Shown: positions 7,642-63,000, numbered from the stretch's first letter. The stretch is 64,000 nucleotides of DNA from Planctomycetota bacterium (GCA_052034525.1 JBPOIK010000079.1:6579-70578); one strand, 5' to 3'. Numbers and translations: made by a program. Notes: generated from the letters alone by a model not told the origin.

Positions 7642-7705
7642 GGGATTATAGGGCCAGGCCGGACACGGTCCACGTGCTGGTTACCGCGGGCCGGAACCGG
7701 TCGCC

Positions 7706-36130: not shown

Positions 36131-38203
36131 TCAGTGGGTGGGTGGCAGAACGGCGAAGCGGGCGGCCGCGGCGGGGCCGTCACCAGCGGTGCATCGAAGC
36201 TCGAACTGGCCGGGGGGCAGCGTCAAGCGAGTAAGCTGGTCCGCAGACAGAACCCGGCCGTTGAGGAACCAAGTGAGGTTGCCATCCCGGTTGGCACGAG
36301 GGCGGATAACGGTCTGCCCCGAGAGTGCGATGAACCGCGAGCCGTCGCGCGGGCTGAGGATACGCAGCGGGCCGCCCAACTCGGTCGGGCGGGGCAACGG
36401 GTTACGGACGGCCCAGAGACCGGGTGGATCGGGGGCAACGGCCGAGCGAATGGTTGGCAGGTCGAGAATAGCGCTCAGCAGCGGCTCGGCGGCCTGCGCC
36501 CCGACGTAGCCGGCATGGCCGGCGCCGGAGAACCGCCCGATCCACACCCCGACGACCACCTTGCGGTTGTGGCCGACCGCCCAAGCATCGCGCCGGCGGG
36601 AGCTGGTGCCGGTTTTCCACATGAACCAGGGAATCGTCTCCGCCGGCCAGGCCTCCATGCCATTGGGGCGACGACGCTGGGAGGAAAGGATGTCGTCCAG
36701 TGCAGCGCAGACGTCCGGCTCCAGAACGCGGGCGGTGGTCGTCGGATCGTCCAGGAAGAGTCGTGGAGTCTGCCGGACGCCGCCGCGCCCGATGGTCGCA
36801 TATCCCGTGACCAGGTCCACAAGCGTTACTTCCACTGCCCCGGTGACGACGGCCAGCCCGCCACGGGCGAGCACGTTGTCAGGCAGGCGGATGCCGGCCG
36901 ATTCAACAATGCCGGCACAGTGGGCGAGGCCGACGGCCTCCGCCGTCAGGATGGCCGGGACGTTCAGGGATCGTTGGAGCGCCTCCGCTGCCGGCAGGGG
37001 GCCGCAGAATGTGCGGTCAAAGTTCTCCGGCGACCAGCCGGCACGGTTGATCGGGATGTCATAGACGGTGGAATCCGGCGCGAGGCGCCGGGTCTGAAAG
37101 GCGGCGGCGTAGACAAACGGCTTGAGTGTCGAACCGGGGCTCCGCCGGGCGATGGCGCCGTTCACCTGCCCGTCGACGGGGTCGGCCGGGTCGGCCGAAC
37201 CGACTAGAGCGAGGATGTCGCCCGTCGGGATATCCATGACCAGCACGGCCACGTCCGAGCCGGGCGGGAGGGCGGCCGCACGTTCACGTACGAGCCGTTC
37301 CACGTCGGCCTGGAGAGAGAGGCAGATCGTGGTTCGGCCGCCGTGCGGACGGCGTTGCAGCGCGAGCCAGGCGGCCTGGGGTGCGTGCATCTGCCGCGGC
37401 GCCGGTTGCAGAACGAGTGGTTCGGCGACGGCCTGTCGCCATTGTGCGGCCGTGATAACGCCTGTCTCGAGCATTCGGCAAAGAACGGTATCGCGGCGAG
37501 CGTGGGCGCGGTCGGGGTGGCGGTCCGGACGATAGCGGGCAGGGGACTGAGGCAGACCGGCCAGGAGCGCGGCTTCCGACAGGGTAAGTTCCGATGCCGG
37601 TCGGCCGAACCAGGCCAGCGATGCGGCCTGGACTCCGCGGTAGTTGCGACCGTACGGGGCGAGGTTGAGGTAGATCTCCAGGATATCATCCTTGGAACGT
37701 AATCGTTCCAGTTGCAGCGCGCGGAAGGATTCGACGATCTTGGCGCGGAAGGATCGAGGTCGGTCGTCCATCATGCGGCACACCTGCATGGTGAGCGTGC
37801 TGGCGCCGGACCGGATGCGGCCGGCGGCGACGTTCTGACCGATCGCCCGGATGACGGAGATCGGATCGACCCCCGGGTGAGAGTAGAAGCGTTCGTCCTC
37901 CGCGGCGATGGTGGCCTTGACCAGCCAGGGGGACATCCGATCGAGAGGGATGGAAAACCGCCATTGTTCGTCTTTGGCGACCAGCGTGAGCAGCACACGG
38001 TCGGAGCGGTCCGTGACACGCGGACTCACCGGCCAGTTGTTCAGGTGTTCAATCGGGAACGGGAAGGCAATCCAGGCGACGACAAACGTGAGCAGAGCGA
38101 CGGTAGTGAGGATGGCGGCCCATCCTGCTGCCTTTCGAAGCCGACCGGAAGGCCGGCCTCCTCGCGCATGAAACCACTGTCGCAGCCGCTCGATGGGTCT
38201 CAT
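36131..38203 (-). CDS. pbpC: Penicillin-binding protein 1C (glycosyltransferase GT51 plus transpeptidase)
   Basis: GT51 motifs ATIAAEDERFYSHPGVDPISVIRA...SGASTLTMQVCR. Transpeptidase motif SPGSTLKPFVY. The ATG overlaps the stop of the upstream alpha-2-macroglobulin gene (ATGA at 38200-38203). Confidence 0.9.
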   Translation of the reverse strand: MRPIERLRQWFHARGGRPSGRLRKAAGWAAILTTVALLTFVVAWIAFPFPIEHLNNWPVSPRVTDRSDRVLLTLVAKDEQWRFSIPLDRMSPWLVKATIAAEDERFYSHPGVDPISVIRAIGQNVAAGRIRSGASTLTMQVCRMMDDRPRSFRAKIVESFRALQLERLRSKDDILEIYLNLAPYGRNYRGVQAASLAWFGRPASELTLSEAALLAGLPQSPARYRPDRHPDRAHARRDTVLCRMLETGVITAAQWRQAVAEPLVLQPAPRQMHAPQAAWLALQRRPHGGRTTICLSLQADVERLVRERAAALPPGSDVAVLVMDIPTGDILALVGSADPADPVDGQVNGAIARRSPGSTLKPFVYAAAFQTRRLAPDSTVYDIPINRAGWSPENFDRTFCGPLPAAEALQRSLNVPAILTAEAVGLAHCAGIVESAGIRLPDNVLARGGLAVVTGAVEVTLVDLVTGYATIGRGGVRQTPRLFLDDPTTTARVLEPDVCAALDDILSSQRRRPNGMEAWPAETIPWFMWKTGTSSRRRDAWAVGHNRKVVVGVWIGRFSGAGHAGYVGAQAAEPLLSAILDLPTIRSAVAPDPPGLWAVRNPLPRPTELGGPLRILSPRDGSRFIALSGQTVIRPRANRDGNLTWFLNGRVLSADQLTRLTLPPGQFELRCTAGDGPAAAARFAVLPPTH

Positions 38204-41200
38204 CGGCTCACCACAAGATTTCCCGCTCCGTGGACCGAGGCAAACCCGGGGTCATACATGCACGACGCCTCGATCGGCGGCACGACGAAGGAGCCGGCGG
38301 ACACCGCACGCAGGCTGTAACGGAAGGTGCGGGCTTCGCGGCCGACGGAGGTGAACACAAGCACGCGGTCGTCGAGGAATTCCACCCGGTCCGGCACGTC
38401 CCCGGGTTCGTCCCATGGCGCCGCGCGAACGGAGGTGACCAGACGCGGGTTTTCCACTTCCAGCCCGCCAGGCAGAGCGTCCACAATGCAGACGTTCTCC
38501 AGCAACTGGTAATCGTCCAGACCTGGTGCCGCCACTTCCACCTCCACGAGAATCAGGTCACCCGTCCGCACGGCGGTCGGATCGATGGGGGTCCCGTCGC
38601 CCTTAAGCCACCGGCGACGGACGGTGAGCTGGCGGTCGTACGGTCGTACGGCGGCCTCGGCCGCCAGCCCGGTGAAGCTGACGGAAACATGAATCTGGCC
38701 GGTTCCCTCGGCGGCAATCTCGATGGGGCATCCTCCGCGTTCCGCGGTGAGCGAAACAGGCTCGTTGCTGGAAAAAGGTGCCGACACGTTGGGGCCGGTG
38801 ATGGTGCCGTGGAAGTCGGCTGGTTCGGCGGCGAGAGCCTGGTAGCGGGCCAGGGCGGCCAGCGCGCCGGCCGTCTGCAGCGTGTTGCCCCAGTGGCCGT
38901 CCTTCCGAGCGGCCTCCAATCGCCGCACGAGCGGCACGATCCACGGATGGTTCGGGTCCAGATCGAGCAGCACGAGCAGCAGCGTGGCTTCCTGGTGGAC
39001 TTGCGACGTGATTCGATCGCCCGTCGTGGCAACGACAGATTGCTCGAGCGTGTCGTCGGCGAGCACCTGTTCGGCCCGGTCCCGCTGGCCGGCGGCCAAC
39101 CAGGCGGCAGCCAGATGCGCCCGGCCGGCGATGTCGAGTTGGATGGTCGGTTCACTGAGGCGGGCCATCCAACCCCGCTGGGGACGATCCCAACCGGCCA
39201 GCACGTGGCAGATCATGGCCCGCAGATTGGCGTTTCCGCCGTCGTCGTCGATGTCGTTCAGAACGGACTCAAGGTATTTGCAGAGATCATTCATCAGTTG
39301 AGATTCGACGGCATAACCCTGACGCGATGCGCAGAGCAGGAACTCGCCGACGTATGTGGACACCCACGCTTCCGCGCGGACGTCGCCGGGCCAGCAGCCG
39401 AAACCGCCGGACCGGGTCTGCATGGACCAGAGTCGGAAGATGCCGGCTTGGATCAGGTCGCGTACGGCATCCCCGGCCTGGGCCGACGGGCTGGATGTCG
39501 GGAACAGCTCCGGCGCGTACAGCAGGGCCAACAGACGGCTGGTCGTCTGTTCCAGGCAGCCGTACGGATAGTCAAGCAGGAGCTGAAGGGCCGGACGAAG
39601 CTGAACGGCGGGCCGGGCCCCGACGGTGACGGCCGTTCGAACGGTCTCGGCTCGGAGTGTCTCCGGCGGGTCGAGCATCACGGGATCGCCGGGTGTGATG
39701 GTCAGAAGCCGGCTTACCGTAACCAGCGGGACGGCGGGGCGGACAGTCACGTCCGCCCGAGCGATGGCGGCCAGCGCTTCCCCATCGGCCGCCGTGGCGG
39801 TCGCCTGGACCCGGGCCTCCGCGATGCCCAGCGTGTCGGTCGTGGCCGTGAACCAGACCGTGCTGGAGCCACCGGGCGGAACGGCCACTGCTGGCCGCTG
39901 CGGCTCCGCCACGGTGAGAACACCCGGCGGGGCCAGGACATGCACATCCACGCTCAGCGGGTTCTCAGACGTATTGAAAAGCTTGACCGGCACGTCGAAC
40001 GTGTCGTTTGGTGCGGCGAATCGCGGCCAGGCGGCTTCCACCACAAGTGGCGCCGTGACGGTCAGCGCGTGTTCGGCGTGGCCGTAGAGGTCGGCATCCG
40101 CCGCCACGCCCATGATCCGCATCTGCCCCGTGAGGTCCGGCAGCATGAGGTCCGCGTGGGCGGTCCCGTCCGCCTCCAGCGGCACCACGGTTCGCCAGAT
40201 TACGGCCGGATCTCGGTGTCGAACGCCCACGGGATTCCGCCGCATCGCCTCTTCCCCGAAGTCGTCTCCGCCGATGCGGGTCATGTCGGCGGGGCGGAGG
40301 TAGTCCGGCATGAGGTTGGCGAACAGATCGGCCGACCACACTCCTGCCACGCGCGGCGCCAGGAACCAGGAAAGCGGGTCCGGCGTCTTGTATGCGGTGG
40401 TCAGCAGAATGCCCTCGTCAACGGCCCACAGATGAAGGCAGCCCGGCCGCTGAAGATCAGCCGGCGCCGACGTGCGAGCGATCACCTGGACAGACTGCCC
40501 CGGTCGGGCCGTGGCGGGCGCCTCGATGGTGATCGGCAGGTTGTGAGCCGTGTGATCCGCAATCAGGCGCACGGTACCCATGGCGCGGTGTGGGAGCCAC
40601 TGCGGCTGGTCCGGATTCAGCGGGCGCACGATGGTGGCGGTGACGAACCCGCCGCCGCGGATGGTCTGAGGGACGGCAAGCGCGACCTCGATGCCGTTGC
40701 TGGTCATCTCCACTACCTGGGTGTCCAGCACGCGATCCGTTTCCAGTGCCAGCCACAACGTGCCGGGGAAGGGACTCCGCACAAGGACGCGCGCCTGCGA
40801 CCCGGGCACGTACCGGTCATGATCGAGGATGACTTCTGCTCGCTCAGGCTGATCCAGAGCCACGGTGACCGCCGCGGTCCCGTCGCGAACGGCGTGAAAC
40901 TCCAATCGGGTCAGGCTGCCGGACTCCACGTCCGTCGCCTCGAACCGGTATTGGCCGGGGGTCGGGCAGCGAACCGTGATGACGCCCTCGGGCGTCTGAC
41001 TGGCCGCCAAAGCACCGGTGGCGACTTCCGTAACATCCTCGACAGATTTGAACACCCACCGCCCGTTAACCCACTCGAGTACGGATTCATATTCCACCCG
41101 TTGCAGGACGTATTTCAGGCCGCCGGGCTGGGCCGGTTCGTCGGTACACGACACCTGTGTCCATGTGATGGGCACCTCTTGATCGACGGGTACGAGGTGT

Positions 41201-43617
41201 CCGGCCGGCAGTCGCAGTCCGACGTGTCTACCGGCTGCATCGACGCGGAAACCCGTGCCCGTAGAGACGGACCGCCCGCCGGGTTCGGAAACCGTGACAG
41301 CAACGGCGGCCTCCCACAGACCGGCCGGTACATCCGGCGGCAGGGGCAGCTCGAGCGTCGCGTGCCCCTGCTCGTCCAGCGGGGCCTCGGTATCCGGGAT
41401 GGCCGCGCGAGCACCGGCCAGCGGATCTGTGAACGTGTGGTCGGGGAACCGTCTGGACTGGAACGAGATGCGCCGAAAGGTTCCGCTGACGACGGCCGGG
41501 AGCTTCGCCGCAGGCTGGCCAAACAGGTACCGGGCCTTCGTCTCAACCGCCGGCGCCTGATCGGGAGCGAACAGGGGCGCCGTGGGATTGGCCGTCACTT
41601 CCAGGCGCACCGGGACGAAGGTCTCAATCAACGCGCTGGTTTCGCCGAGCACTTCCGCCGCGCCCGGCAGGCTGACGGAGAACCGATACTCGCCAAGCTG
41701 CCCGTCGGGCAGGCTCGGGTACTCCGCGTGGAAAAACCCCTGTCGGTCCGGCTGTGACGCGATCGCCATCTCCTGAACGGCGCGTCCGTCGGGACGGGTT
41801 ACCTTCAGGGTCAGGGGGAAGGCCGGTGGAACCTGACCGACATCGTCCCGGATGATCCCCGTAAGATGGACCGGGTCGCCGGGCCGGTAGACGCCACGCT
41901 CGGTATAGAGCATCACGTCGTAGGTGCGCGGATACGGGCGACCGGAATGATCCACGTCATCGAACACCCACGGTTCCCGCTCCGGAACCACGTAATTCAG
42001 GTCGTCGCCCAGCCGGGCGGTGACCAGCCAGGGATTGCCATCCGGGTGGTTATCCGGCACGACCAGCCGGGCAATTCCATCCGGGCCGGTGGTGCCGGAA
42101 CCGAGCAACTGGTTGTTGAACGACCAGGCGCACACCTCGGCCCCGGCCACTGACCGGGCCGTGCGCAGCGAGGTCACCCAGGCGGTCAGCCCGTCTCGTT
42201 CCTGCTTGACGGTCAGGCCCAAGTCGGAAATGCAGACAATCGCGGTGTCGTCCACCCAGGTCTGGTCCGTAGCGCTGGCCTGCACGTAGTAGACGCCGGG
42301 GTGATCCGGCAGCACCTGCTGAAGGCTGACGGCGGTGACGGTGGGGATGTTGCGGGGCAGATCGAGCGGAAAGATTTGCTCGTCCAGCTCGCGGGCGGTC
42401 GCTCGCGGCCTTTCACCCCGAACGTGTGCGACCAGGTTGTTCTCGTGCACGCGCCGCGTCCGGATCGCCACGCCGGCCACGTTCACGGCCCGCAATTCCA
42501 CCTCACGATGCCCGTAGGGTGTCAGGATTCCCCGGCTGACAGGAAAACGCAGCCCGGGCCAGCGGTCGGGAATCTCGAAGGTCACCGTCTGGGGCGACCC
42601 CACGGTGGACCCGTCAACGGCCACGGCCTCGGCGCCCACGATGGCCGTGTATGTCCGGCCCGATTCAAACGGCCCCTCGATCCACAGGGATCCCCAGGAT
42701 CCCCGGCGCACTCGCAAACCGGGGACGGGCGGATCGGTTTGGACGGTGGGCAGCGGTTTGTCGTGGTGCAGGGCGAATGAAAAATGCAAGTCAATCGCTA
42801 CGTCGTCCTCGAGGCAGGGGTGGTTGACTTCCGCCGAGAGCAGAACGAACCGCGGGCTGACATCGAGCTGCCGTGTTTCGTTCTGGCCGAGCGGTCGGTT
42901 GCCGCCGTGCCCGGTGAGGGCGGCCGCCAACGTCAGGTATACCCGAGCGGCATCGCTCCGCGGGCACCGGATGATCATGCGTTCCGCCGGTTCACGCGTC
43001 AGGCAGACCGCGTCCAGAATCTCGCCGGACGCGCGCTGGGATCCTGGAGTCGCCTCCTCGCACAATGACGTCCGGATCCGAAGGTGGGCGAGCAGGTCGC
43101 TCGGGTTGACCGGCTGGTTGAAGACGAGTTCCAGCGTCAGATCAGAACGATCCACGGCCAGAAGCTGGTGATGGATCAATTGGAGGGGGCGCGTGGCAAA
43201 CTCAAACGAAGACGTGCCAACGAGCACACGCCCGGTCTGCGTTTCCGCGTCCGCCGCAGGCTTGACCACGTATACCCGACCCGGCGCCAGTGGCCTGTCC
43301 AGGCGATACTCCAGTCGGTCCGGCTTGGCCCAGACCCATTGGCCGTCCGGCGGCGGATCCACGAGGAAGGGCGAGCGGGCTGCCGGTTTGCCGACCAGAG
43401 ACGTAGGCACCAGCGGCTCATCAAAAACGAGGGTGAGCCGGTCGGTCTCGTCGATGTTCTGCGTCGGGAGAGCGGCGAGCACGCGGAGCTTGGGCCGGTC
43501 CGTGCGGGTGGCCGCCCGGTAGATGAGCCCCAGTCCAACGGCGTTCAATACGAGCAGGGCGGCAGCCAGAAACGCAAAACGAGTGCGGGAAAGCATAGGT
43601 TCGACTCCATGAACCAA
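38200..43617 (-). CDS. Bacterial alpha-2-macroglobulin family protein (YfhM-like), 1805 aa
   Basis: Thioester motif YPYGCLEQTTSRL, with CLEQ encoded at 39547-39558 on the minus strand. The size, the N-terminal hydrophobic anchor (FAFLAAALLVLNAVGLGLI) and the genetic linkage to pbpC all fit this family. Confidence 0.9.
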   Translation of the reverse strand: MVHGVEPMLSRTRFAFLAAALLVLNAVGLGLIYRAATRTDRPKLRVLAALPTQNIDETDRLTLVFDEPLVPTSLVGKPAARSPFLVDPPPDGQWVWAKPDRLEYRLDRPLAPGRVYVVKPAADAETQTGRVLVGTSSFEFATRPLQLIHHQLLAVDRSDLTLELVFNQPVNPSDLLAHLRIRTSLCEEATPGSQRASGEILDAVCLTREPAERMIIRCPRSDAARVYLTLAAALTGHGGNRPLGQNETRQLDVSPRFVLLSAEVNHPCLEDDVAIDLHFSFALHHDKPLPTVQTDPPVPGLRVRRGSWGSLWIEGPFESGRTYTAIVGAEAVAVDGSTVGSPQTVTFEIPDRWPGLRFPVSRGILTPYGHREVELRAVNVAGVAIRTRRVHENNLVAHVRGERPRATARELDEQIFPLDLPRNIPTVTAVSLQQVLPDHPGVYYVQASATDQTWVDDTAIVCISDLGLTVKQERDGLTAWVTSLRTARSVAGAEVCAWSFNNQLLGSGTTGPDGIARLVVPDNHPDGNPWLVTARLGDDLNYVVPEREPWVFDDVDHSGRPYPRTYDVMLYTERGVYRPGDPVHLTGIIRDDVGQVPPAFPLTLKVTRPDGRAVQEMAIASQPDRQGFFHAEYPSLPDGQLGEYRFSVSLPGAAEVLGETSALIETFVPVRLEVTANPTAPLFAPDQAPAVETKARYLFGQPAAKLPAVVSGTFRRISFQSRRFPDHTFTDPLAGARAAIPDTEAPLDEQGHATLELPLPPDVPAGLWEAAVAVTVSEPGGRSVSTGTGFRVDAAGRHVGLRLPAGHLVPVDQEVPITWTQVSCTDEPAQPGGLKYVLQRVEYESVLEWVNGRWVFKSVEDVTEVATGALAASQTPEGVITVRCPTPGQYRFEATDVESGSLTRLEFHAVRDGTAAVTVALDQPERAEVILDHDRYVPGSQARVLVRSPFPGTLWLALETDRVLDTQVVEMTSNGIEVALAVPQTIRGGGFVTATIVRPLNPDQPQWLPHRAMGTVRLIADHTAHNLPITIEAPATARPGQSVQVIARTSAPADLQRPGCLHLWAVDEGILLTTAYKTPDPLSWFLAPRVAGVWSADLFANLMPDYLRPADMTRIGGDDFGEEAMRRNPVGVRHRDPAVIWRTVVPLEADGTAHADLMLPDLTGQMRIMGVAADADLYGHAEHALTVTAPLVVEAAWPRFAAPNDTFDVPVKLFNTSENPLSVDVHVLAPPGVLTVAEPQRPAVAVPPGGSSTVWFTATTDTLGIAEARVQATATAADGEALAAIARADVTVRPAVPLVTVSRLLTITPGDPVMLDPPETLRAETVRTAVTVGARPAVQLRPALQLLLDYPYGCLEQTTSRLLALLYAPELFPTSSPSAQAGDAVRDLIQAGIFRLWSMQTRSGGFGCWPGDVRAEAWVSTYVGEFLLCASRQGYAVESQLMNDLCKYLESVLNDIDDDGGNANLRAMICHVLAGWDRPQRGWMARLSEPTIQLDIAGRAHLAAAWLAAGQRDRAEQVLADDTLEQSVVATTGDRITSQVHQEATLLLVLLDLDPNHPWIVPLVRRLEAARKDGHWGNTLQTAGALAALARYQALAAEPADFHGTITGPNVSAPFSSNEPVSLTAERGGCPIEIAAEGTGQIHVSVSFTGLAAEAAVRPYDRQLTVRRRWLKGDGTPIDPTAVRTGDLILVEVEVAAPGLDDYQLLENVCIVDALPGGLEVENPRLVTSVRAAPWDEPGDVPDRVEFLDDRVLVFTSVGREARTFRYSLRAVSAGSFVVPPIEASCMYDPGFASVHGAGNLVVSR

Positions 43618-47031: not shown

Positions 47032-47111
47032 GCCCGCGGCCCGCCGACACCCCCACAAACACAACCACACGCCAGCGCGCGGATCGAGAACAGTCCGGGC
47101 GCTCGGCGATG

Positions 47112-47372
47112 TCCTGACTGGGGTTCGCGTACCAGGACGTTCCGCCTCCGGCCATCGGGGCATGGAAGCGCCTGCGCCGCTTCTGTTTCAATTCGCGGGC
47201 CGGCATGTTGCGAATCAATCGTGCCCCCGGGCGTTTCCTCTGCGTAAGGAGCACGGTCCGGTAGGAGTTGTTCGCACCGCACGCCCGCGTGTTCGATTTG
47301 ATCCAACTGCATCTTCCGACCTAGGACTATTGTCCCAACAGAATCTGCGCATTGCGGGCCGCCACGTCTTGA
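47112..47372 (-). pseudogene. Eroded IS5-family-like transposase remnant
   Basis: Part of ORF 46995..47561(-) reads ...SRRGGPQCADSVGTIVLG..IEHAGVRCEQLLPDRAPYAEETPGGTIDSQHAGPRIETEAAQALPCPDGRRRNVLVREPQSG. From memory, IS5-group transposases carry RRGRP...(I/V)L, RW..GVWE.LL, ..P(S/T)AAIIDSQSVK and NGRKRH.LVDT.G. No start codon, no DDE core and no inverted repeats were recognised. Confidence 0.35.
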
Positions 47373-47654
47373 AGTGATGTCATCGTGTGGCATTAGAATT
47401 ATGACTTCTATTTTTGTTCTCGATTCAGCCGATAGAAATGTGTCCCGGCGCAGAAGAGAGCTGAAGGAATGTCGCCCTGTCATCTGGTGACATTGCATCG
47501 CACAGAACGGGCGGCCGCGCGGACGTCGGGAGAAACCTGCGCCGCCGAACGCCTGGCTCATTCGAAGAGAACGCTCCGCTTTGTTCCGGCATTCGATCTT
47601 GTGACGTTGCAGGTCGGGCAGAGCGAGCCGCGCGCATCAGAAGAGGTCTGAACC

Positions 47655-49184
47655 ATGTCCAACACGGTTACGATCAGTCCGCTGACCCGCATCGAGGGCC
47701 ATCTGGCCATCCACACCGAGACCGAGCCGCACATCAGCGGTTCCGGCGTGCAGGTGACTCAGGCCCATTGCGAGGGGGAGATGTTTCGCGGGCTGGAGGT
47801 GATTCTGGTGGGTAGAGACCCGCTGGACGCCCAGCAGATCACGCAGCGGACCTGCGGCGTCTGCCCGATCTCTCACGGTATGGCCTCGGTGCGGGCCCAG
47901 GAGGGGGCATACGGGATTCGGCCGGTGCGGAACGGACGGCTGCTGCAGAACCTGATCGCGGCGGCCAACTATTTTCACTCGCACATCCTTCACTTCTATC
48001 AGCTCGCCGCGCTGGACTTCGTCGATGTGACGGCCGTGCTGAATTACACGGGGTCCGACCGCACTCTGCTCAAACTCAAGGCGTGGGCGCAGTCGACCCT
48101 GGATCGCAAGGATGTCTTTCCGGTGGCGCCGTTCCTGCCGCGCTACGAGGGTGACTACGTTTCCTCCACGGAGATCAACTGCGCGCTGCTTGCCCATTAT
48201 GCGGATGCCTTGAAGACGCGCCGGATTTGTGACGAAATGGGGGCGGTGTTCGGCGCGCGGTTGCCGCACTCCACCGCCCTGCTGCCGGGGGGATGCACGC
48301 AGAAGCCCACGCTCGAGCGGATCCTGGCCTACCGGTCCCGGCTGGACGAGGTGCTCGCGTTCGTGGAGGACGTGTACCTGCCGGACCTGCTGGAGGTGGG
48401 TCGTCAGTTCCCGCAATATTTCGAGATCGGACGCGGATGGGGGAATCTCCTGGCGTACGGCTCGTTCGAAATGGACGACAGCGGACGGAAGTTTTTCCCG
48501 TCGGGAACGCTCATCGACGGCAAGTGGGAGGCGTTCGATCCGCGTCACATCAGCGAAGACGTCAGCGCGGCCTGGTACGAGGACGACGCGGCCCGTCATC
48601 CGTTCGAGGGCCAGACGCTTCCCAAGCCGGGCAAGCCGCGGGCGTATTCCTGGATCAAGGCGCCGCGCTATCGAGGACTGCCGCTGGAAGTCGGTCCGCT
48701 CGCCCGGATGCTCGTGCACTACCACGCGGGGACCGGCGGCTGGGCGCGCGAGCTCGTGGACTCGATCTGCCAGAAGCTCGGCGTCACGCCGGACAAACTG
48801 GTGTCCGTGATGGGTCGACACGTGACCCGGGGGCTGGAGACGCTGGCCCTGGTGCGGCAGTGTTTCCGCTGGCTGGACGAGATTGCCGTGGATCAGCCGG
48901 CCGTCACCGAGTTTGAGTTTCCCAAAAACGGCAAGGGGGCGGGCCTGGTGGAGGCCCCGCGCGGCGCGCTGGGCCACTGGCTGACCATCGAAGATTACAA
49001 GGTGAAAGCATATCAGAGCGTGGTGCCGACGACGTGGAATTGCTCGCCTCGGGACTCGAAGGGGCAGTCCGGCCCGGTGGAGAAGGCGCTGGAGGGCACG
49101 CGGGTGGCCGACGCATCCCAGCCGATCGAGCTGGGCCGCATCGTACGCTCGTTCGATCCATGCCTGGCGTGCGCGGTTCATTGA
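47655..49184 (+). CDS. [NiFe]-hydrogenase large subunit (509 aa) ending at the DPCxxCxxH histidine
   Basis: N-terminal motifs LTRIEGHLAIH and RTCGVCPISHGMAS (CxxC Ni ligands). The C-terminal SFDPCLACAVH is followed directly by TGA. AGAAGAGG lies upstream of the ATG. Confidence 0.93.
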   Translation: MSNTVTISPLTRIEGHLAIHTETEPHISGSGVQVTQAHCEGEMFRGLEVILVGRDPLDAQQITQRTCGVCPISHGMASVRAQEGAYGIRPVRNGRLLQNLIAAANYFHSHILHFYQLAALDFVDVTAVLNYTGSDRTLLKLKAWAQSTLDRKDVFPVAPFLPRYEGDYVSSTEINCALLAHYADALKTRRICDEMGAVFGARLPHSTALLPGGCTQKPTLERILAYRSRLDEVLAFVEDVYLPDLLEVGRQFPQYFEIGRGWGNLLAYGSFEMDDSGRKFFPSGTLIDGKWEAFDPRHISEDVSAAWYEDDAARHPFEGQTLPKPGKPRAYSWIKAPRYRGLPLEVGPLARMLVHYHAGTGGWARELVDSICQKLGVTPDKLVSVMGRHVTRGLETLALVRQCFRWLDEIAVDQPAVTEFEFPKNGKGAGLVEAPRGALGHWLTIEDYKVKAYQSVVPTTWNCSPRDSKGQSGPVEKALEGTRVADASQPIELGRIVRSFDPCLACAVH

Positions 49185-49222
49185 CCGCGTCCGGGGCCGA
49201 CGGGGCGGGGTCGCCCGTGGAG

Positions 49223-50194
49223 ATGACAGTGATGGCAGAGATTTCGCGAAGGGAATTCCTCGGGATGGGCGCCGCGCTGGCGGCCGGCGCCGGACTGGGC
49301 CCCAGCGCGGCGCGGGCCCTGGCCAACGGGCTGGAGCGGGTGTTCAGCGGCCAGAAACGGGTGGTATGGCTGCAAGGCATGTCCTGCACCGGGTGCAGCG
49401 TGTCGCTGCTGAACTCCGACGAACCGGGGCCGGTGGAACTGATCACGCAGGTAATATCCGTCGTGTTCCATCCGACCCTTTCGGCGGCGCAGGGCGATCT
49501 GGTCACCCAAACGCTGGATCGGCTCAGCGAGGCGGGAGACTTTTACCTGGTGCTCGAAGGGGCGGTGTGCCCGCAGATGCCCCAGGCGTGTACGATCGCC
49601 GGCAAGCCGCTGACCGAGCTGCTGCCGCCCTTGCTGCGGCGGGCGCAATTCGTGCTGACGGCCGGTTCCTGCGCGGCGTTCGGCGGTATCCCGGGTGCGG
49701 AAGGGAACCTCACCGGCGCGATAGGGCTGAAGGAATTCATGATCGGCCAGGGGATTTCCGTGGAACGCAAGCTGGTGAACTGCCCGGGCTGCCCGGTCCA
49801 TCCGCACACGCTGGTCACCACGTTGGCGTATCTGGCGGGCGTGGGGTATCCGGCCGTCGATCCGGCCACGCTGACGCCGGACATGATCTGCTCCGCGTCC
49901 GTTCACGACGACTGCCCGCGATTCCATCACTGGCAGAAGGGGCACTTCGCGGAGCACTTCGGGGATGAAGGGTGCCTGTTCAAGCTGGGGTGCCTGGGGC
50001 CGTTGAGCCATTCGAACTGCTCGCACCGTCAGTGGAACGGGGGAATCAACTGGTGCATACGAGCCGGGGCGCCGTGCATTGCGTGTACGAGCGAGGATTT
50101 TGCGAAGCGCAAATCGTTCCCATTCTATCGCCATGGTGAGAAGTATCACACGGTGGCGTATGGTGATGAAGACCGAAAGGGGACTGCGACATGA
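49223..50194 (+). CDS. [NiFe]-hydrogenase small subunit with a twin-arginine (Tat) leader
   Basis: [32 protein letters not shown] is the Tat motif. It is followed by [49 protein letters not shown] and [12 protein letters not shown] (FeS-cluster ligand motifs). There is no C-terminal TM anchor. Confidence 0.9.
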
Positions 50195-51681
50195 TGCTGA
50201 AAGAAGCCAGCCTGGCCCGACGGATGTACGTGCCGACGATCGGACTGTTTGTCGTGTCGATGGCGGTGCTGCTCGGCATTCAGCACACGTTGTACGTGCG
50301 CGGTTTTGAGGACACACTGGGAAGAATCGAAGGTTCATCCCTGGACGTGCAGCGCGAGTCGTCGAAGGGGATGGCCCAGGGCATCTGGGCCGCCACCGAC
50401 CGCTGGCTGCAGACCGGCGAGCACACCCAGTTCGTGGATTTTGCGCACCGGCAGAGAGAACAATCGTCCATCGGAGTGATTGCTTTCGTCGGTCTGTCCG
50501 GGACGGCCGAGCTGGCCTCGCCCGTACAACACGTAGGCACGCCGCTGGCCGAGGGTGTCTGGGACCAGGCAGCCGAGACTTCGGACTTGATCCTGCGGGA
50601 GGATGCGAAGGCGATTAACCTGTATCAGCCGCTGCACGTCACGCCGGACATGCGGCGGCTTCGGCCGGACATGGAGGTAGGTACGCTGTACGGCCTGCTG
50701 CATCTGGAGTTTCCCAAGGACGAGTTGAACAAGATGCTGGCAGATGCCCGCTCCGTGTTTGAGGGCCGGGTCAGACAATCCCTGACGCTGACCTGCGCGA
50801 CGGGCGTCGCCGCCCTGGTGGTGATGGCGGTCAGCCTGTTCCCATTGGTCGTCCTCCCGCTGGTGCGTTCTCTGCAGGGAGTCATCGGAAACCTGGGTGA
50901 GGGCTCGAAGGAACTGGTGGAGATTTCCCGGCAGATCGGCGGAGCGAGTCAGCGACTGGCGACCTCGGCCTCGGAGCAGGCGTCGTCCCTGGAGGAGACC
51001 AGCAGTGCCATGGAGCAGATGTCGGCCATGACGCGGACGAATGCGGCGAACGCCCGCGAAGCCGACACGTTGAGCGCGCAGGCCCAGGAGAACGCCGCCG
51101 CGGGCGACCAGACGATGGTCCGGCTGACGCAGGCCATGACCAGCATCAACGAGTCGTCAGCCCAGATCGCCAAAATCATCAAAGTCATCGAGGAAATCGC
51201 CTTCCAGACGAATTTGCTGGCCCTGAACGCCGCCGTGGAGGCGGCCCGGGCGGGCGAGCACGGCAAAGGCTTCGCAGTGGTGGCCGACGAGGTACGGAAC
51301 CTGGCCAGTCGGGCGGCCGAAGCGGCCCGGAACACGCGAACGCTGGTGGAGGATTCGGTGGGGCGGGCGCGGGACGGCGTTGAGGCCGTCCGTGAGGCGG
51401 GAGTCGCCTTCGGGGCGATTGTGGCCAGTACGCAACGGGTATCGGAACTGGTGGGAGAAATCGCCCGGGCATCCGAGCAACAGGCGCAGGGGGTCGACCA
51501 AGTCAACAGCGCTGTGTCACAGATGTCGCAGATGACCCAGGAGTCGGCTTCCGAAGCGAGTCACTCCTCCTCCGTGGCCGAGCAACTCGGCCTGCAGGCG
51601 GAGTCGGTGAAAGACATGGTGGGCGCGCTGGTGGGCATTGTGAAAGGCGCTGGAGCCGCACGGGAAGAACAGGAACTCTGA
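50191..51681 (+). CDS. Methyl-accepting chemotaxis protein with a periplasmic domain of about 160 aa
   Basis: The start ATG overlaps the small-subunit stop (ATGA, 50191-50194). TM helices lie at about residues 14-34 and 198-225. The signalling domain reads ...[16 protein letters not shown]...[42 protein letters not shown]. Confidence 0.92.
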
Positions 51682-56870: not shown

Positions 56871-57548
56871 ATGGAGGCTTCAGACATGGCGTTTGACATT
56901 ATCGAAGTCTTATCGGTTCTTGCAGCCCGCCGGCCCGTCTTCCATTCAGAAGCGGACTTCCAGCATGCACTGGCGTGGATCATCCACGAGCAAAACCTGG
57001 GCGTTGAGGTCAGGCTCGAATACAGGCCTGGCAAGCTGAAGCAGAGGACATACGTCGACATTTGGCTGGAACATGCTGATGCGACCTACGCGATTGAGTT
57101 GAAATACAAGACACGACGTCTACGGGTGACCGTGGGCCAGGAGCCGTTTGATCTGCTGGATCAGAGCGCCCAAGACCTTGGGAGATACGATTTCTGCCGG
57201 GACATCGGACGGATTGAGGCGATGGCGAGCGCCTACCCCGGCCTGACCGGGTTCGCCCTGATCTTGACGAACGACCCAACGTATTGGCGAAAGAGCGGTC
57301 GCGATGGCAACGTTGACTGCGCGTTCCGCGTGCATGAGGGGGCGAAGCTCAGCAGCACGCTCGCTTGGGCTGGTCATGCGTCAGCCGGAACCACGAAGGG
57401 CAGGATCGCTCCCATCTGTCTGCGGGGCGAGTATGTGCTGAACTGGATGCACTACTCGAAGTGCGGCGATGGGGGGAACAACGAGTTCCGAGTGGCCGTT
57501 GTGAGCATCGACCCGGTTGCGCTCGCCCCAGCGGAGACAACCACCTGA
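56871..57548 (+). CDS. PD-(D/E)xK nuclease-fold protein (restriction-endonuclease-like), unknown family
   Basis: ...FHSEADFQHALAWIIHEQNLGVEVRLEYRPGKLKQRTYVDIWLEHADATYAIELKYKTRRL. The D...E-L-K arrangement after a beta-strand is the classical PD-(D/E)xK core. The codon third positions are visibly more A/T-rich than in neighbouring genes. Confidence 0.6.
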   Translation: MEASDMAFDIIEVLSVLAARRPVFHSEADFQHALAWIIHEQNLGVEVRLEYRPGKLKQRTYVDIWLEHADATYAIELKYKTRRLRVTVGQEPFDLLDQSAQDLGRYDFCRDIGRIEAMASAYPGLTGFALILTNDPTYWRKSGRDGNVDCAFRVHEGAKLSSTLAWAGHASAGTTKGRIAPICLRGEYVLNWMHYSKCGDGGNNEFRVAVVSIDPVALAPAETTT

Positions 57549-57964
57549 TAACCCGAGCCTACGGTTCTCTCCGGCGTGGAGAGGCTCTGGGCCAAACCCG
57601 GCCAATCAGGTGGCCACCAAGAATGGTGCGGTTATCTCTGGTGGCGAATCCGAGATCCTGGCCATAGACGGTGTGGATCGTAACCCCTTTGTGGACAGAA
57701 CGTAAAAAGCGAAGACGCCGACGCCTGGGGGCATCGGCGCGTTCTGTGAACCACGGGGCCGGCGTGTTCTGCAACGGCCCGGGAAATAGCGGGGGCACGC
57801 CACGCGGTTCGCCCACGACACCGGAAACACCGCGTTTCCCGCGAAGAAACAGCCTCGGCGACCGGCGGCCGGCTGATCCTGCCGTTCCGGTGGGACACAC
57901 ACGGCATCACAGACGAAGGTGAGGCGCTGGTGGTCGCCGCCGGCGGCGGACGGGAGGGCGCGAA

Positions 57965-58789
57965 GTGAGGCGACTCGCCGCACGGGCCGAGACCCTCTGC
58001 CGAGCGGTGGCGCCGGACCTGGCCGGCCGACCGGTGTACGTCGTGCTGGCCGCGGATCTGCCGGCGGAACTGCGTTGGCCGGACCGACTGGAGGGCCTCA
58101 CGACGCGGTACCTGGACCTGATTCTGCGGCCGACGCTGGAGCCGCTCGGCCGATGGCGGGGCCGTGGGCCGGCGATGGTGGTCAATCCCCAAGCGATCGC
58201 GGCCGACCTGGCCGAGCTGGGCCGGCCCGCCCGCCGCCGCTGCTTTGCACGGACCTTCCTGGGCGACGTGCTGCACGAGCTGGCGCACATCCTCGATGCC
58301 GGACTGATCGGCGGACCCGAACCGCCCGCGAGCTTGGTCACCTTCGCCGCCCTGGCCCTCAAAGCGGAACTGGACGGCGTGACCGCACCGACGAACGGCC
58401 CGAGTGCAACGATACCCTGGCGCCGTCACGAAGCCCCATTCATCCGCATCGTGCTGCACCTTGCCCACCGCGCCCGGGCGTGCGGCGCGTGGCTGTTCGC
58501 CGAGGACCTGTTCGACGCCGTCGAGTACGGCCTGTCGCCCACGCGGCGCTACGCTGCGGCGCTCGGCGACGAGCCCGGACGGCTGGCCGGCTGCGCGTTC
58601 GCCAACATCCAGGCGACGCCGCAGCCGGCGGCATTCGCGGAATTGTGGCAGGCCGACGTGCCGCGCTGGAAGTCGAAGACGGCAGCAACAGAAGAGCTTT
58701 CGAGGACGCTCGCGGCGTGCGAGCGTCGCATCCTCATCCCTCAGGGCGGTGCAGGAGGCGCCGCAAGGAGACAAGGAAGTCTATGTTGA
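57965..58789 (+). CDS. HExxH-motif protein (putative zinc metallopeptidase, SprT/ImmA-like core)
   Basis: GTG at 57965 follows GGGAGGG. The central motif is FARTFLGDVLHELAHILDAGL. A second His pair (IVLHLAHRA) lies about 60 aa downstream. Coding-like GC3 is very high throughout. Confidence 0.6.
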   Translation: MRRLAARAETLCRAVAPDLAGRPVYVVLAADLPAELRWPDRLEGLTTRYLDLILRPTLEPLGRWRGRGPAMVVNPQAIAADLAELGRPARRRCFARTFLGDVLHELAHILDAGLIGGPEPPASLVTFAALALKAELDGVTAPTNGPSATIPWRRHEAPFIRIVLHLAHRARACGAWLFAEDLFDAVEYGLSPTRRYAAALGDEPGRLAGCAFANIQATPQPAAFAELWQADVPRWKSKTAATEELSRTLAACERRILIPQGGAGGAARRQGSLC

Positions 58790-59472
58790 CCGAACTGCTG
58801 AGCGAACTGGAGACACGGAAGAAGGGCCGGGAGGCCGACTTCTGGGCGACGGTCCGGAAGCTGGCGGCCGGCGAGAGGGTCGCGCCCGCCGCGGTCGAGC
58901 GGCTGCTGGCCGATTGCGGCCGGACGCCGGCGGACCTGAAGGCAGCCGTGGAGCGGATGCAACAGCGACAGCAGTGGTTCGCGGTGGTCGCCGGCGTGGG
59001 TGCCCTGGAACAGGAGCGGACCGAGCTCCGCGAGCGAATGCTCGCCGAGGACCGCAAGCTGGAGGAGGCCGAGCAGGCCCACACCGACGCGACGCTGCCG
59101 CTGCACGCGCGGCTGGAGCAGATCCAAAGGGCGCTGTGGGAGGCCCGCGACGCCCGCCAGCGGCTCATGGACACGTGCCCGTACGCGGACCTGACGGCCG
59201 AGCTGGCGGAGGTGCTGCGGCGGATTGCCGCACTGCGGACCCGCTTGTACGAGCTGCGTCACACGGCTGGCGAGTGCGAGTCGGCGGCCAAGGCCGACCT
59301 GGAGCAGGTCGAATGCGAAGGCGGGCGGCGGGCGGACTACTGGCGGGCCCAGGCGGCAGAACACCGCCGGCGAGCAGAGGCGGCCCGGGCCGAACTGCCC
59401 GAGATCGAGCGCCAGCTCGCGAAGCTGGAACGCGAGGAGGTCGAGCTGCGGGAGCGAATGGTCCAGCCGTGA
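58783..59472 (+). CDS. Coiled-coil protein (229 aa), translationally coupled to the HExxH protein
   Basis: The ATG at 58783 follows AAGGAGACAAGGAAG and overlaps the upstream stop (ATGTTGA). The protein MLTELLSELETRKKGREADFW...LEQERTELRERMLAEDRKLEEAEQAH...ERQLAKLEREEVELRERMVQP is rich in heptad Glu/Arg/Leu. Confidence 0.65.
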   Translation: MLTELLSELETRKKGREADFWATVRKLAAGERVAPAAVERLLADCGRTPADLKAAVERMQQRQQWFAVVAGVGALEQERTELRERMLAEDRKLEEAEQAHTDATLPLHARLEQIQRALWEARDARQRLMDTCPYADLTAELAEVLRRIAALRTRLYELRHTAGECESAAKADLEQVECEGGRRADYWRAQAAEHRRRAEAARAELPEIERQLAKLEREEVELRERMVQP

Positions 59473-59844
59473 CGACCGGCCGGCCGACAGCCGTCGCATG
59501 GAGCGCCGGATGCTGCCCACGGACGCCGGCGGGATTCGACCGCGCAAGCTCGCCGCGGTAGGTCCCGCCGGCGTGGGCGCCCGCGGCAAGTCCGGCCGGT
59601 CCGCCGGGCGGGGCATCTGAAGCCAGCGCGCTGGTCAACCCCGTCTGTTCAGGGGTACGACCCTATCTGTCGGACCCATCGGGAATAATGGCAGAACCGG
59701 CGTCCATGTTCGGGGCGCCGGCCGCCTGCGACGCGGCAACAGGACAGCGTTTGACAGCAGCCTCCAACAACTATCAAATTACAGGCGTCTCTTGGCGGTG
59801 GCCGGGGGCATGTCCTCCAGCGCCCGAGCGGCGGCAGGCGGCAG

Positions 59845-60027
59845 ATGAACAGACGCATCGACAGCGTGCTGACCATCGACGAGCTTTCAGCGTATCTGAA
59901 GATCGCGAAGTCCACGCTCTACAAGCTCGCCCAGGAAGGCAAGCTTCCCGGCCAGAAGGTCGGCCGGCATTGGCGGTTCCACAGAACCGTGATTGACCGC
60001 TGGCTTGGCGACAAGAAGGCAAAGTGA
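59845..60027 (+). CDS. Excisionase-family helix-turn-helix DNA-binding protein
   Basis: MNRRIDSVLTIDELSAYLKIAKSTLYKLAQEGKLPGQKVGRHWRFHRTVIDRWL matches the excisionase/MerR-type HTH pattern (LT..E.A.YL......Y.L...G.LP..K.GR.WRF....I..WL). Confidence 0.85.
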   Translation: MNRRIDSVLTIDELSAYLKIAKSTLYKLAQEGKLPGQKVGRHWRFHRTVIDRWLGDKKAK

Positions 60028-60086
60028 TGATGGTACAGGCGACGACCGCGACCGCAAGTCCGGTAGCCACGTGTGGGTAGGACGCG

Positions 60087-63000
60087 ATGCCAAGACAGGT
60101 CATCATCGAAAACCCAGTCATCAACTCGCCATTCGACGAGCCGCAGCGACATTTCCGCTTCGATGACGAGGGCATCACCGGTATCATAGTGGAACAGCGG
60201 CGTGAGAGCGGTTGCTTCGTACCGATCGCCCCACCCCCCAGAAAGGGCAGCGGCGCGAAGCAACCGTCGTTTGACACGGAATGGACGGCCGACCGGATCG
60301 AGCCAAACCGGATGGTCAATGCGATCCGCCAGAAGGTGAAGCTCTGGCGCGAAGGCCGCTACATCGACGACACAACGTCAGTCACGGCCCGACTGCTCCA
60401 GCACTGGACGAATCCCGAGCGCTCGCGCCGGCTGTTCTTCTGCCAGATCGAGGCCCTGGAGACGCTCATCTACATCGCGGAGGTCGCCAAGAAGTACGGC
60501 GAAAACTGGATCGAGAACGACATTCGCCGCGCGAACGAGGACGCGAACCCCGGCCTGTTCCGTATCGCGTGCAAGATGGCCACGGGCAGCGGCAAGACCG
60601 TGGTCATGGCCATGCTGATCGCGTGGCAAACGCTCAACAAGATCGCCAACCCGCAGGATGCCCGCTTTACCGATAGCTTCCTGATCGTCACGCCGGGCAT
60701 CACTATCCGCGACCGCCTGCGCGTGCTTCTACCCAGCGACCCGGGCAATTACTACCGCGCGCTGGACATCGTACCGGTCGACCTGATGGACCAGCTCGGC
60801 CACGCCAAGATCGTCATCACCAACTTTCACGCCTGCAAGCGCCGCGAGAAGGTCAAGGCCGGTAAGCTAACCAAAGACATCCTCAACGGCAGCAACGCCG
60901 CCGGCAGTTCAGCGTTCACCGAGTCCGAAGGCGAGATGGTCCGCCGCGTTTGCCGCGGCCTGGGACACAAGCGCAACGTCATCGTCATCAATGACGAGGC
61001 CCACCACTGCTACCGCCATCGTGCCGGCGGCGTCGAAGAGCAGCTTACCGGCGACGACCGGAAGGAAGCCGAGAAGCGCGACGAAGCCGCCCGCATATGG
61101 ATCAGCGGCCTGGAGGCTGTTCAGCGGAAGCTCGGCATCAAGGTGGTCTACGACCTGTCGGCCACGCCGTTCTTCCTGCGCGGAAGCGGTTATCCCGAAG
61201 GCACGCTCTTTCCGTGGGTCGTCTCGGACTTCTCGCTGATCGACGCCATCGAATGCGGCATCGTGAAGGTGCCCCGCGTTCCGGTGGCCGACAACGCGAT
61301 GATCAGCGACCAGCCCACCTACCGCAACATCTGGTATCGCATCCGCGACGACCTGCCGAAAAAGGGCCGCGGCACGGCGGCGGTGTTCGGCGATCCGAGG
61401 CTCCCCGTCGTCCTGGAAGGCGCCCTCCAGAGCCTCTATGCGAACTATGAGAAGTGCTTCGACCGCTGGAAACGGAACGCCGAAGTCCACGCCGCCGGAC
61501 TGACGCCGCCGGTCTTCATTGTCGTCTGCAACAACACCAACGTCTCGAAGATGGTCTTCGACTACATCGCGGGCTGGGAGAAGCGGCTTTCCAACGAGAC
61601 AGCCGTGGCCGTCTCCGGCCGTCTGGCCCTGTTCAGCAACGTGGACGGGAGGCGCTTCATCAACCGGCCCAACACGATCCTCGTGGACAGCGAGCAACTC
61701 GAATCCGGCGAGGCGATGAGCGACGAGTTCAAGAAAATCGCCTCCGCCGAGATTGCCGAATTCAAAGCCGAATACCGACAGCGCTTCCCCGACCGCGACG
61801 TGGAGAAGCTCACCGACGAAGATCTGCTCCGCGAGGTGATGAACACCATCGGCAAGCCGGGCAAGCTCGGCGAGCATGTCCGCTGCGTGGTGTCCGTCTC
61901 CATGCTCACCGAGGGTTGGGATGCGAACACCGTGACCCACATCCTCGGCGTACGGGCCTTCGGCACGCAGCTTCTTTGCGAGCAGGTCGTCGGTCGCGGC
62001 CTGCGCCGGATGAGCTACAGCGCCGTCCCGCACACGATCGAATTGCCCGGCCAGCGCGGCACCCGCACCTTCGACGCCTTCCCCGTCGAATACGCCGAGG
62101 TCTACGGCGTGCCGTTCTCGTTCCTTCCATGCAGCGGCTCGACGATCGACCCGAAACCCGGGCCGATTCCCACGCGCGTCCGCGCGCTCGAAGAGCGCAT
62201 CGCCTGTGAGATCGCCTTTCCGCGCATCGACGGCTACCGCTACGAACTGCCGGCCGAGCGCCTGACGGCGGAGTTCTCCGCCGACTCGAAGATGGCGCTG
62301 ACCACCGCCGACGTGCCCACCAAGGTCGAGTGCGATCCTATCGTGGGCGAAAGAGCCATCCATACGCTGGACGATCTGAAACGCCGCCGCGAGCAGGAAG
62401 TCGTTTTCGTCATCGCCCGCCGCGTCCTGGAGCAGTACTTCCGTGACGACGACGGCAACCCGAAGGTGTGGGTCTTCCCGGACCTCGTGGCCATCACCCG
62501 CCGCTGGCTGTCCGAGTGCCTCACGCTCAAGGACAACACCTTCCCCCAGCTTCTGCTGCTGGTCGAGAACAGCCACCAGGCCGCCGACCGCATCTACCAG
62601 GCCGTCCTCGCGGCCGATGGGGGGCAGAAGCGCCTGCTGCCCATCCCCAAACCTTACGACACCGTCGGCAGCACGCGCCACGTGGACTTCGACACGACGC
62701 GCCCGGTCTACCGCACCGACCCGCGCAAGTGCCATGTCTCCCACGTCGTGGCCGACACGGAGAGCTGGGAGCAGAAGATGGCCCAGGCACTGGAGGAAAT
62801 GCCGGAAGTTCTCTGCTACGTCAAGAACCACAACCTCGGCTTCCTGATCCCCTACACCATCGGCGGCGACCAGCGAAACTACATGCCCGACTTCCTGGTC
62901 CGGGTCGATGACGGCCGCGGCCCAACGGACCCACTGAATTTGATTATCGAGGTCAGCGGCGAGCGCGACGCCGACAAAGCCGCCAAGGTCGCCACGGCCC

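Follow-up and report, generated by a model that had tools for sequence, protein, structure and literature searches.

A [NiFe]-hydrogenase coupled to a methyl-accepting chemotaxis protein in Planctomycetota: a candidate periplasmic H2-sensing chemoreceptor

A 64,000-nucleotide stretch of DNA from a Planctomycetota bacterium (GCA_052034525.1 JBPOIK010000079.1:6579-70578; hereafter the window) carries at positions 47655-51681 three genes that code for a [NiFe]-hydrogenase large subunit (L), its small subunit (S) and a methyl-accepting chemotaxis protein (MCP). The three proteins probably form a periplasmic H2-sensing chemoreceptor complex, as proposed in an earlier note made from the sequence of the window. 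What is observed directly is how the genes are built and arranged, which cofactor-ligand motifs they encode, that the triplet is conserved and that its three parts vary in a correlated way; from this we infer physical association of the proteins, a response to H2, an output to motility and a docking mechanism. Somewhat less assured is the more specific proposal, to which we nevertheless incline, that a catalytically standard [NiFe]-hydrogenase exported by the twin-arginine translocation (Tat) system acts as the detector of a chemoreceptor and represents a new "MCP-linked group 1" subgroup with two versions, one relying on a c-type heme relay and the other on contact through a tail of S.

Organization and conservation of the triplet

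The genes for L (509 aa, 47655..49184, + strand), S (320 aa, 49232..50194, +) and MCP (496 aa, 50191..51681, +) are arranged as a tight co-directional operon, in the order L-S-MCP, flanked by housekeeping genes. Direct reading of the sequence places an ATGA overlap at 50191..50194 (+), where the MCP ATG (50191-50193) overlaps the S stop codon TGA (50192-50194). The database gene call uses a second ATG at 50194 (495 aa); both starts are coupled to the S stop. The large-then-small order and the translational coupling of the three genes as one unit, both pointed out in the earlier note, are borne out. The L start codon is preceded by a Shine-Dalgarno-like GAAGAGG. The intergenic region between the end of folC (47031) and L (47032..47654, +) holds no coding-like open reading frame and presumably contains the promoter of the operon; a scan for consensus sigma-70 promoters and terminators yielded nothing useful on the + strand.

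A pattern scan for L, limited to one genome per species, retrieved 420 relatives, of which the best 80 (52-92% identity) were analysed. A locus was considered informative when S was present together with at least 700 bp beyond it, which is the case for 69 of the 80. A homologous MCP adjoins L-S in 66 of these 69 loci, and part of an MCP is visible in six further, shorter ones. The carriers belong to Phycisphaerae, Pirellulales, Planctomycetales, Verrucomicrobiota, Lentisphaerae, Krumholzibacteriota and many Desulfobacterota, with the addition of a metagenome-assembled genome (MAG) of Fibrobacteraceae. Named carriers include Desulfocarbo indianensis, Desulfothermus okinawensis and Anaerohalosphaeraceae strain U12dextr. 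Phycisphaerae MAGs are the source of the relatives with 91-92% identity, which places the organism of the window in that class of planctomycetes. Flanking genes vary between loci and only L, S and MCP recur. Since the adjacency is found again across species and flanking contexts, it goes far beyond chance.

The coupling is conserved as well. The MCP start codon lies -14 to +15 nucleotides from the S stop in 56 of the 57 loci with the usual gene order, and overlaps it in 32. The order is permuted to MCP-L-S (as in L034) or S-MCP-L (as in L068) in four loci (L034, L067, L068 and L073) whose three genes are still adjacent. The association was also found in the reciprocal direction, in a metagenome scan seeded with sensor-domain patterns from a 13-sequence alignment, which samples close relatives of one sub-branch and is no census: among the 15 loci retrieved, S is directly upstream of the sensor gene in all 14 that have upstream sequence, accompanied by L where the contig reaches. 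The earlier note had envisaged that the adjacency might be absent from relatives, or that the MCP might start at an uncoupled downstream ATG; the adjacency extends across phyla and the start stays at the S stop. Note that a 3.4 kb contig binned as Promethearchaeota (L064) codes for heme-type L and S nearly identical to Desulfobacterota versions and probably reflects contamination during binning and not an archaeal gene.

The large subunit

L matches PF00374 (E 1.5e-148) and scores 621 bits with NCBIfam NF033181 (cut-off 600). Its best solved relatives are the periplasmic [NiFeSe]/[NiFe] enzymes 1cc1, 4kl8 and 5jsu. The length of 509 aa and the motifs RIEGH, RTCGVCPISH and DPCLACAVH-stop given in the earlier note were found again at 47655-49184; the latter two motifs are Ni-site motifs of the Group 1 [NiFe] type (RxCGxCxxxH and DPCxxCxxH, respectively). 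The last codon before the stop is that of the final His of DPCLACAVH, and L thus has no C-terminal extension. The same His is the C-terminus in 80 of 80 L relatives, whereas the nearest outsiders to the MCP-linked clade (see below) carry an extension of 14-15 aa. The lack of an extension would make an endopeptidase step unnecessary. For comparison, L was aligned with two proteins encoded by pHG1, the membrane-bound HoxG of group 1d and the group 2b H2 sensor HoxC. The extension-less C-terminus is common to L and HoxC (...CAVH versus ...CTVH), while the CGVC, HFYQL and ...PISH (L1 His) of L correspond to CGIC, HFYLF and ...SVSQ in HoxC. To judge from these motifs the active site is that of an ordinary enzyme, and the maturation signature, the extension-less C-terminus, resembles that of a sensor.

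The small subunit

The S open frame spans 49034-50194. Translation probably begins at ATG 49232 ([11 protein letters not shown]...), which has GGAG 9 nucleotides upstream and matches the gene call in a 92%-identical relative. The Tat signal peptide ([11 protein letters not shown]...ARALA, 49232..49324, +) features an SRREFL motif and is recognized above the cut-offs by TAT_signal (PF10518; 23.4 bits, cut-off 22.7) and by TIGR01409 (18 bits, cut-off 16.7). PF01058 and PF14720 are also matched, in agreement with the identification of S as a Tat-leader small subunit in the earlier note. An RR motif is seen in most relatives. Alignment with 1cc1_S shows that the ligands for the proximal, medial and distal clusters are all present. 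The medial cluster has four Cys as in [NiFeSe] enzymes (the Cys of SNC, NWC and PCIAC align with those of 1cc1_S) and the distal one is liganded by His and three Cys. S is of the soluble type, having no C-terminal membrane anchor. Its polypeptide ends with a tail ([35 protein letters not shown], 50087..50191, +) that bears the motif GExxHxVxYxExDRKG, specific to the heme-less type defined below.

The chemoreceptor and its sensor domain

The MCP is composed of a first transmembrane (TM) helix (residues 12-30), a sensor, a second TM helix (residues 206-224) and a signalling domain matched by PF00015 (residues 294-449, E 5.6e-51). Methylation-helix motifs and a typical MCP tip characterize the signalling domain, whose CheA/CheW-binding tip is conserved. 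The [12 protein letters not shown] block, the first methylation-helix motif, begins at residue 266, 41 residues past TM2, and no match to a HAMP domain was found in the MCP. The layout drawn in the earlier note holds for the two TM helices and the short distance to the conserved block; the periplasmic part is about 175 aa long and not about 160 aa as it had stated.

The periplasmic sensor domain (residues 31-205; 50281..50805, +) gives no Pfam match even at E <= 10, and none of its full-length orthologues, which reach 87% identity, has a Pfam match in the sensor part in precomputed annotations. A protein search with the N-terminal 231 aa of the MCP returned no match, which is attributed to a word-index limit and not to an absence of relatives. 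The profiling of this domain that the earlier note had recommended was carried out on the structure predicted by AlphaFold2 from 30 orthologues (pLDDT 80). A long stalk helix that continues TM1 is followed in the model by a short helix and an alpha/beta core of five strands, and a further helix runs on into TM2. Foldseek relates it with probability 1.00 to WalK, CitA, PctD and DcuS, with modest TM-scores of 0.5-0.68 on the target; DctB, the heme sensor GSU0935, 3b42 and 3b47 are found among further matches. The modelled fold thus identifies the sensor as a Cache/PDC (PAS-like) domain of a family without a Pfam model; as no Pfam Cache model matches, it is the fold that supports its Cache membership. 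Membership in the heme-Cache families DUF3365/Tll0287 (PF11845; PMC12889525) or PF21563 was considered and is not supported (best E-values 0.05-0.13). Several MCP paralogues (P0154, P0180 and P0186, for example) do carry DUF3365 (PF11845), a heme-c Cache domain described only recently. At least one of them, P0154, is source-named Phycisphaerae, and heme-Cache chemoreceptors may therefore occur in a lineage whose hydrogenase-linked sensor is heme-less.

Two co-varying types of the module

An alignment of 62 sensor domains, with 37 non-redundant heme-less and 21 heme-type sequences, separates two types. The heme-c motif DC[IV]RCH (CxxCH) is present in 21 of 21 Desulfobacterota-type sensors and in no heme-less one, while all 37 non-redundant heme-less sensors have D[MLT]xR[LMF]x at the same site. 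The window sensor has DMRRLR there (50647..50664, +): the Asp and Arg of the heme motif, which are retained in both types, are kept, while both Cys and the His are absent. The heme type additionally features a conserved His (V-t-H-S) and Met (RGEM.KF), further candidate heme ligands that are both absent from the heme-less type. A hidden Markov model of the planctomycete-type sensor finds all 21 Desulfobacterota-type sensors in hmmsearch (1e-25 to 1e-38) and hhalign relates the two with a probability of 99.9%, so both types belong to one family. S differs between the types too. The tail past its last cluster Cys has 33-38 residues with a conserved FPFYRKGExxHxVxYxExDRKG in all heme-less loci and 20-28 unconserved residues in heme-type ones.

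A neighbour-joining tree of L was built from the 66 non-redundant MCP-linked sequences and 147 of the 150 nearest representatives at 50% identity; this library, whose entries come without names or context, has no member closer than 50% identity and serves as an outgroup sample only. The 66 MCP-linked sequences form a clade of their own (bootstrap 69) with none of the 147 representatives inside. The earlier note had raised the prospect of L nesting in a respiratory group 1 clade, which is not the arrangement obtained. Within the MCP-linked clade, the heme-type (20 sequences, bootstrap 84) and heme-less (46 sequences, bootstrap 94) L proteins are sister clades; the heme-less type does not nest within a heme-type grade. 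The nearest outsiders, at 48-50% identity, are group 1a/1b-like and have a normal C-terminal extension. The best PDB and NCBIfam matches of L are of the 1a type, yet the tree gives a separate clade; because the backbone bootstraps are 0-28, no sister group is claimed for it.

L clade, sensor type and S tail match without exception, as is expected of proteins in contact. The correspondence includes the desulfobacterotum Desulfothermus okinawensis (L076), which has a heme-less sensor, a long S tail and an L within the heme-less clade: the three characters travel together independently of host taxonomy. Note that in the draft genome of D. okinawensis JCM 13304 S and MCP are broken by several frameshifts (L076 11500-14800), whose number suggests draft sequence errors rather than pseudogenes.

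Maturation, electron-transfer and chemotaxis genes around the triplet

Neither hyp genes nor genes for an endopeptidase, a cytochrome b or a credible c-type cytochrome were found in the window, which extends to its 64 kb the absence of partner genes that the earlier note had reported within 5 kb. With single R. eutropha queries (HoxZ and HoxM), tblastn detected neither a cytochrome b gene nor an endopeptidase gene in the window or up to 10 kb away in any locus, a search that divergent proteases may escape. Two CxxCH matches in the window were discarded because they lie in non-coding-like frames, the one at 7438-7818 giving an Arg/Pro-rich translation. In Krumholzibacteriota the genes hypA, B, F, C, D and E lie directly upstream of the triplet and run in its direction, and 10 loci in all have hyp genes as neighbours; by this gene context, the hydrogenase is a real enzyme. 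A 235-aa membrane protein with a faint DsbD_2 match is encoded between hypE and L in Krumholzibacteriota (L087 9142-9849); it was seen in one species-level locus only (L036, L087 being the same region in another record).

Chemotaxis genes accompany the triplet in a Pirellulales MAG (L025 6236-17632), in the order cheY-cheA-REC-cheW-L-S-MCP-MCP-cheB, and cheA/cheW are found within 10 kb in L012, L024 and L035. In L025 cheA is split by frameshifts, the second MCP has an HBM/4HB sensor and a GGDEF protein is encoded further downstream. No kinase is conserved in the neighbourhoods of the triplet.

Proposed mechanism

In the mechanism that we propose, L would receive its NiFe(CN)2CO site from Hyp proteins encoded elsewhere, without an endopeptidase step, pair with S and cross the membrane by means of the Tat signal of S, of which the signal itself is established. 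Once in the periplasm, the soluble L-S heterodimer would join the MCP translated from the shared transcript, at its Cache-type sensor domain. Oxidation of H2 by the Ni-Fe site would load the three [4Fe-4S] clusters of S. The MCP would sense the redox state of S and pass the signal through TM2 to the CheA/CheW-binding tip, biasing flagellar rotation.

The reading step would differ between the two types. In the heme type, electrons are probably transferred from the distal cluster to the c-type heme of the sensor, as in redox-sensing heme MCPs, and the MCP would be a built-in cytochrome partner for that cluster. In the heme-less type, to which the window belongs, direct protein contact is the more likely route, perhaps by way of the S tail, because the heme ligands are absent and S has a conserved C-terminal tail; by analogy, the hydrogenase would act in a manner akin to a periplasmic binding protein, and the S tail in one akin to the C-terminus of HoxB in the HoxBC-HoxJ complex.

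Relation to known systems

The highest similarity of both subunits is to group 1a enzymes (Desulfomicrobium baculatum 1CC1 and Desulfovibrio vulgaris Hys; 402 and 188 bits). They share Tat export, a soluble anchor-less S, the 4-Cys medial cluster (three [4Fe-4S] clusters), the standard Ni-site motifs and a passing score with NF033181. The differences are the L-then-S order (small then large in group 1a), the lack of an extension on L, the absence of an endopeptidase gene detected nearby by single-query tblastn, a Cys at the Ni site in the place of the Sec of [NiFeSe] group 1a enzymes, the position in a separate tree clade, and an MCP partner instead of a free cytochrome c3. The resemblance to group 2b (HoxBC-HoxJ of Cupriavidus necator and HupUV-HupT) is of another kind: the hydrogenase is the input of a signal-transduction protein, L is extension-less and the partner senses via a PAS-like domain. 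The C-terminal region of S is in both cases a candidate contact with the signalling partner; the C-terminus of HoxB acts in the HoxBC-HoxJ contact. Group 2b enzymes are, however, cytoplasmic, Tat-less and partnered by a histidine kinase, unlike the Tat-exported and MCP-linked proteins described here, and they have a narrowed gas channel (CGIC and the F in HFYLF) and a Gln for the L1 His, none of which is found in L. They are also distant: in the tree alignment their Kimura-type corrected distance to the window L is 1.30, while the nearest group-1 representatives are at 0.79-0.83.

We know of no heme MCP reported as encoded beside a hydrogenase. Known heme-c MCP sensors (Geobacter GSU0582 and GSU0935, Desulfovibrio DcrA) sense redox via a redox-linked axial-ligand switch (PMC8396549). 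They have in common with the proteins described here a periplasmic PAS/Cache-like MCP sensor, and the Desulfobacterota-type relatives also share with them the CxxCH and the conserved Met and His. The window sensor differs in the absence of both Cys, the His and the Met and of a significant match to PF21563 or DUF3365/sCache_heme. For the heme-less type an analogy, and only that, is offered by binding-protein-dependent receptors such as maltose-binding protein with Tar, in which a soluble periplasmic detector is read by an MCP by contact. The detector would here be, by contrast, a two-subunit metalloenzyme encoded in the same operon as its receptor, with redox state rather than ligand occupancy as the signal.

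[FeFe] group C2 hydrogenases, which are cytoplasmic, follow the same proposed hydrogenase-MCP logic with an unrelated class of enzyme. HydDB classifies them as "chemotactic (putative)", likewise a putative assignment and the only chemotactic one in the database, whose [NiFe] sensors are the histidine-kinase-linked group 2b and the putatively diguanylate-cyclase-linked group 2c (PMC5037454); the background on these three groups given in the earlier note is consistent with that paper. An MCP cluster in the vicinity of [NiFe] hydrogenases is tabulated, but not discussed, in one neighbourhood survey (PMC12727194). The literature searched yielded no account of a [NiFe]-MCP module, although a mention in older hydrogenase surveys is possible, and H2 taxis is demonstrated there only for a methanogen (PMC3817446). 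Relative to known hydrogenase-based H2 sensing, the compartment and the partner are new here, as are the sensor domain and the two proposed mechanistic versions.

Alternative interpretations

Several features weigh against a role of L, S and MCP in H2 sensing. In L the gas-channel residues are of the open kind (CGVC, HFYxL), and the L1 His is retained together with the catalytic Glu and Arg, as in ordinary high-turnover enzymes and without the Ile, Phe and Gln substitutions of HoxC; as far as its sequence tells, beyond the missing extension L has no active-site or gas-channel peculiarity of known H2 sensors. Its similarity is closest to respiratory group 1a and the NCBI model for that type is passed. 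The three-cluster relay of S is complete, with a His-ligated distal cluster that normally serves an external electron acceptor, and the heme-less sensor of the window type has no evident cofactor site, which makes a redox reading speculative there. Support in the L tree is moderate, with backbone bootstraps of 0-28. Che genes are near the triplet in only four of about 75 loci, and L-S is found without an MCP in three informative loci (L030, L069 and L078). Regarding these three loci, hypB, hypF and hypD follow S in L069, a short-tailed S is followed in L078 by a membrane protein lacking an assigned identity, and the upstream sequence of L030 is only 641 bp long. The standard active site, gas channel and Fe-S relay, the best matches to respiratory [NiFeSe]/[NiFe] enzymes and the MCP-less loci keep alive the main rival explanation, that of an ordinary group 1a-like periplasmic uptake hydrogenase feeding a cytochrome c pool encoded at a distance. 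The MCP would then serve redox or energy taxis, or be merely co-regulated, and would not read the hydrogenase. Desulfovibrio-type enzymes indeed use a c3 partner that is encoded at a distance. This explanation is weakened by an MCP linkage that is near-universal, tightly coupled across phyla and upheld by the reciprocal search, in which the sensor behaves as a dedicated family never found apart from the hydrogenase. The co-variation of L clade, S tail and sensor type implies contact, the MCP-linked clade has no C-terminal extension of the sort that its nearest ordinary relatives have, and in the heme type the "cytochrome partner" sits inside the MCP. In addition, many carriers are Phycisphaerae, most of which are known as fermenters. 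We consider a purely respiratory enzyme unlikely.

H2 might also be sensed as proposed and the signal be directed to a non-flagellar output such as gene expression, biofilm formation or type IV pili. It is well known that chemosensory pathways can have other outputs, and both the rarity of adjacent che genes and the GGDEF protein near the che cluster of L025 would fit such an output. The window itself, however, codes for flagellar filament proteins, the signalling domain is that of a typical MCP with its methylation-helix motifs, and cheB and cheW of L025 are of the ordinary kind, so that this possibility appears improbable, more so than that of a respiratory enzyme. Least probable by far is that the MCP-like protein only tethers a soluble hydrogenase to the membrane or scaffolds its assembly, with no part in signalling. 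It is true that S lacks the C-terminal membrane anchor seen in many group 1 enzymes and that searches of the neighbourhood gave no cytochrome b gene, but a tether has no need of a fully conserved cytoplasmic signalling domain, including the CheA/CheW-binding tip. The TM helices have no conserved heme ligands and degenerate signalling domains are seen in no lineage. An H2-sensing chemoreceptor complex thus remains the preferred interpretation of the triplet, the reciprocal linkage and the co-variation of its parts being observations that weaken the respiratory alternative.

Biological significance

H2 is a central currency of anoxic ecosystems and the molecular basis of movement to or from it is hardly explained. 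A [NiFe]-MCP module conserved across phyla is a concrete candidate for an H2 receptor. Such a receptor would be without precedent both as a periplasmic H2 sensor and as a [NiFe]-based input to chemotaxis. Fermenting Planctomycetota, their relatives and sulfate reducers could steer along H2 gradients, which bears on syntrophy. As at least two carriers are apparently isolates and not MAGs (Desulfocarbo indianensis and Anaerohalosphaeraceae U12dextr), the question is directly testable. To judge from their best matches, MCP-linked genes are probably counted in metagenome surveys as group 1a respiratory uptake hydrogenases; if they are sensors, the potential for H2 oxidation is over-counted for Planctomycetota, Verrucomicrobiota and related phyla. 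The module also provides a natural example of a large subunit that lacks an extension and is apparently exported by Tat, a naturally occurring heme/heme-less pair of one Cache sensor, and a compact H2-to-signal device of possible use in biosensors.

Other genes of the window

Flagellin (fliC), FliD and FliS genes are present at 649-5968 (+), in line with the flagellar genes from which the earlier note had concluded that the organism is motile; the FliD protein is unusually long (~1050 aa). Upstream of the triplet lie folC and an aroB-like gene, and downstream are genes for a polyprenyl synthase, an M20 peptidase and a sigma factor. An alpha-2-macroglobulin of 1805 aa with MG, bait-region and TED domains is encoded at 36131-43617 (-). 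Its gene adjoins that of a class C penicillin-binding protein (transglycosylase, transpeptidase and BiPBP_C domains), together forming a classic A2M-PbpC pair. In the region 57500-64000, which may be a mobile or defence island, a stretch with a G+C content of 0.707 (58-60 kb) features long overlapping open reading frames on both strands without Pfam matches. Beyond the high-G+C stretch are a ResIII-type helicase (60081-63131) and a Fic-domain protein that extends from 62912 to the end of the window.

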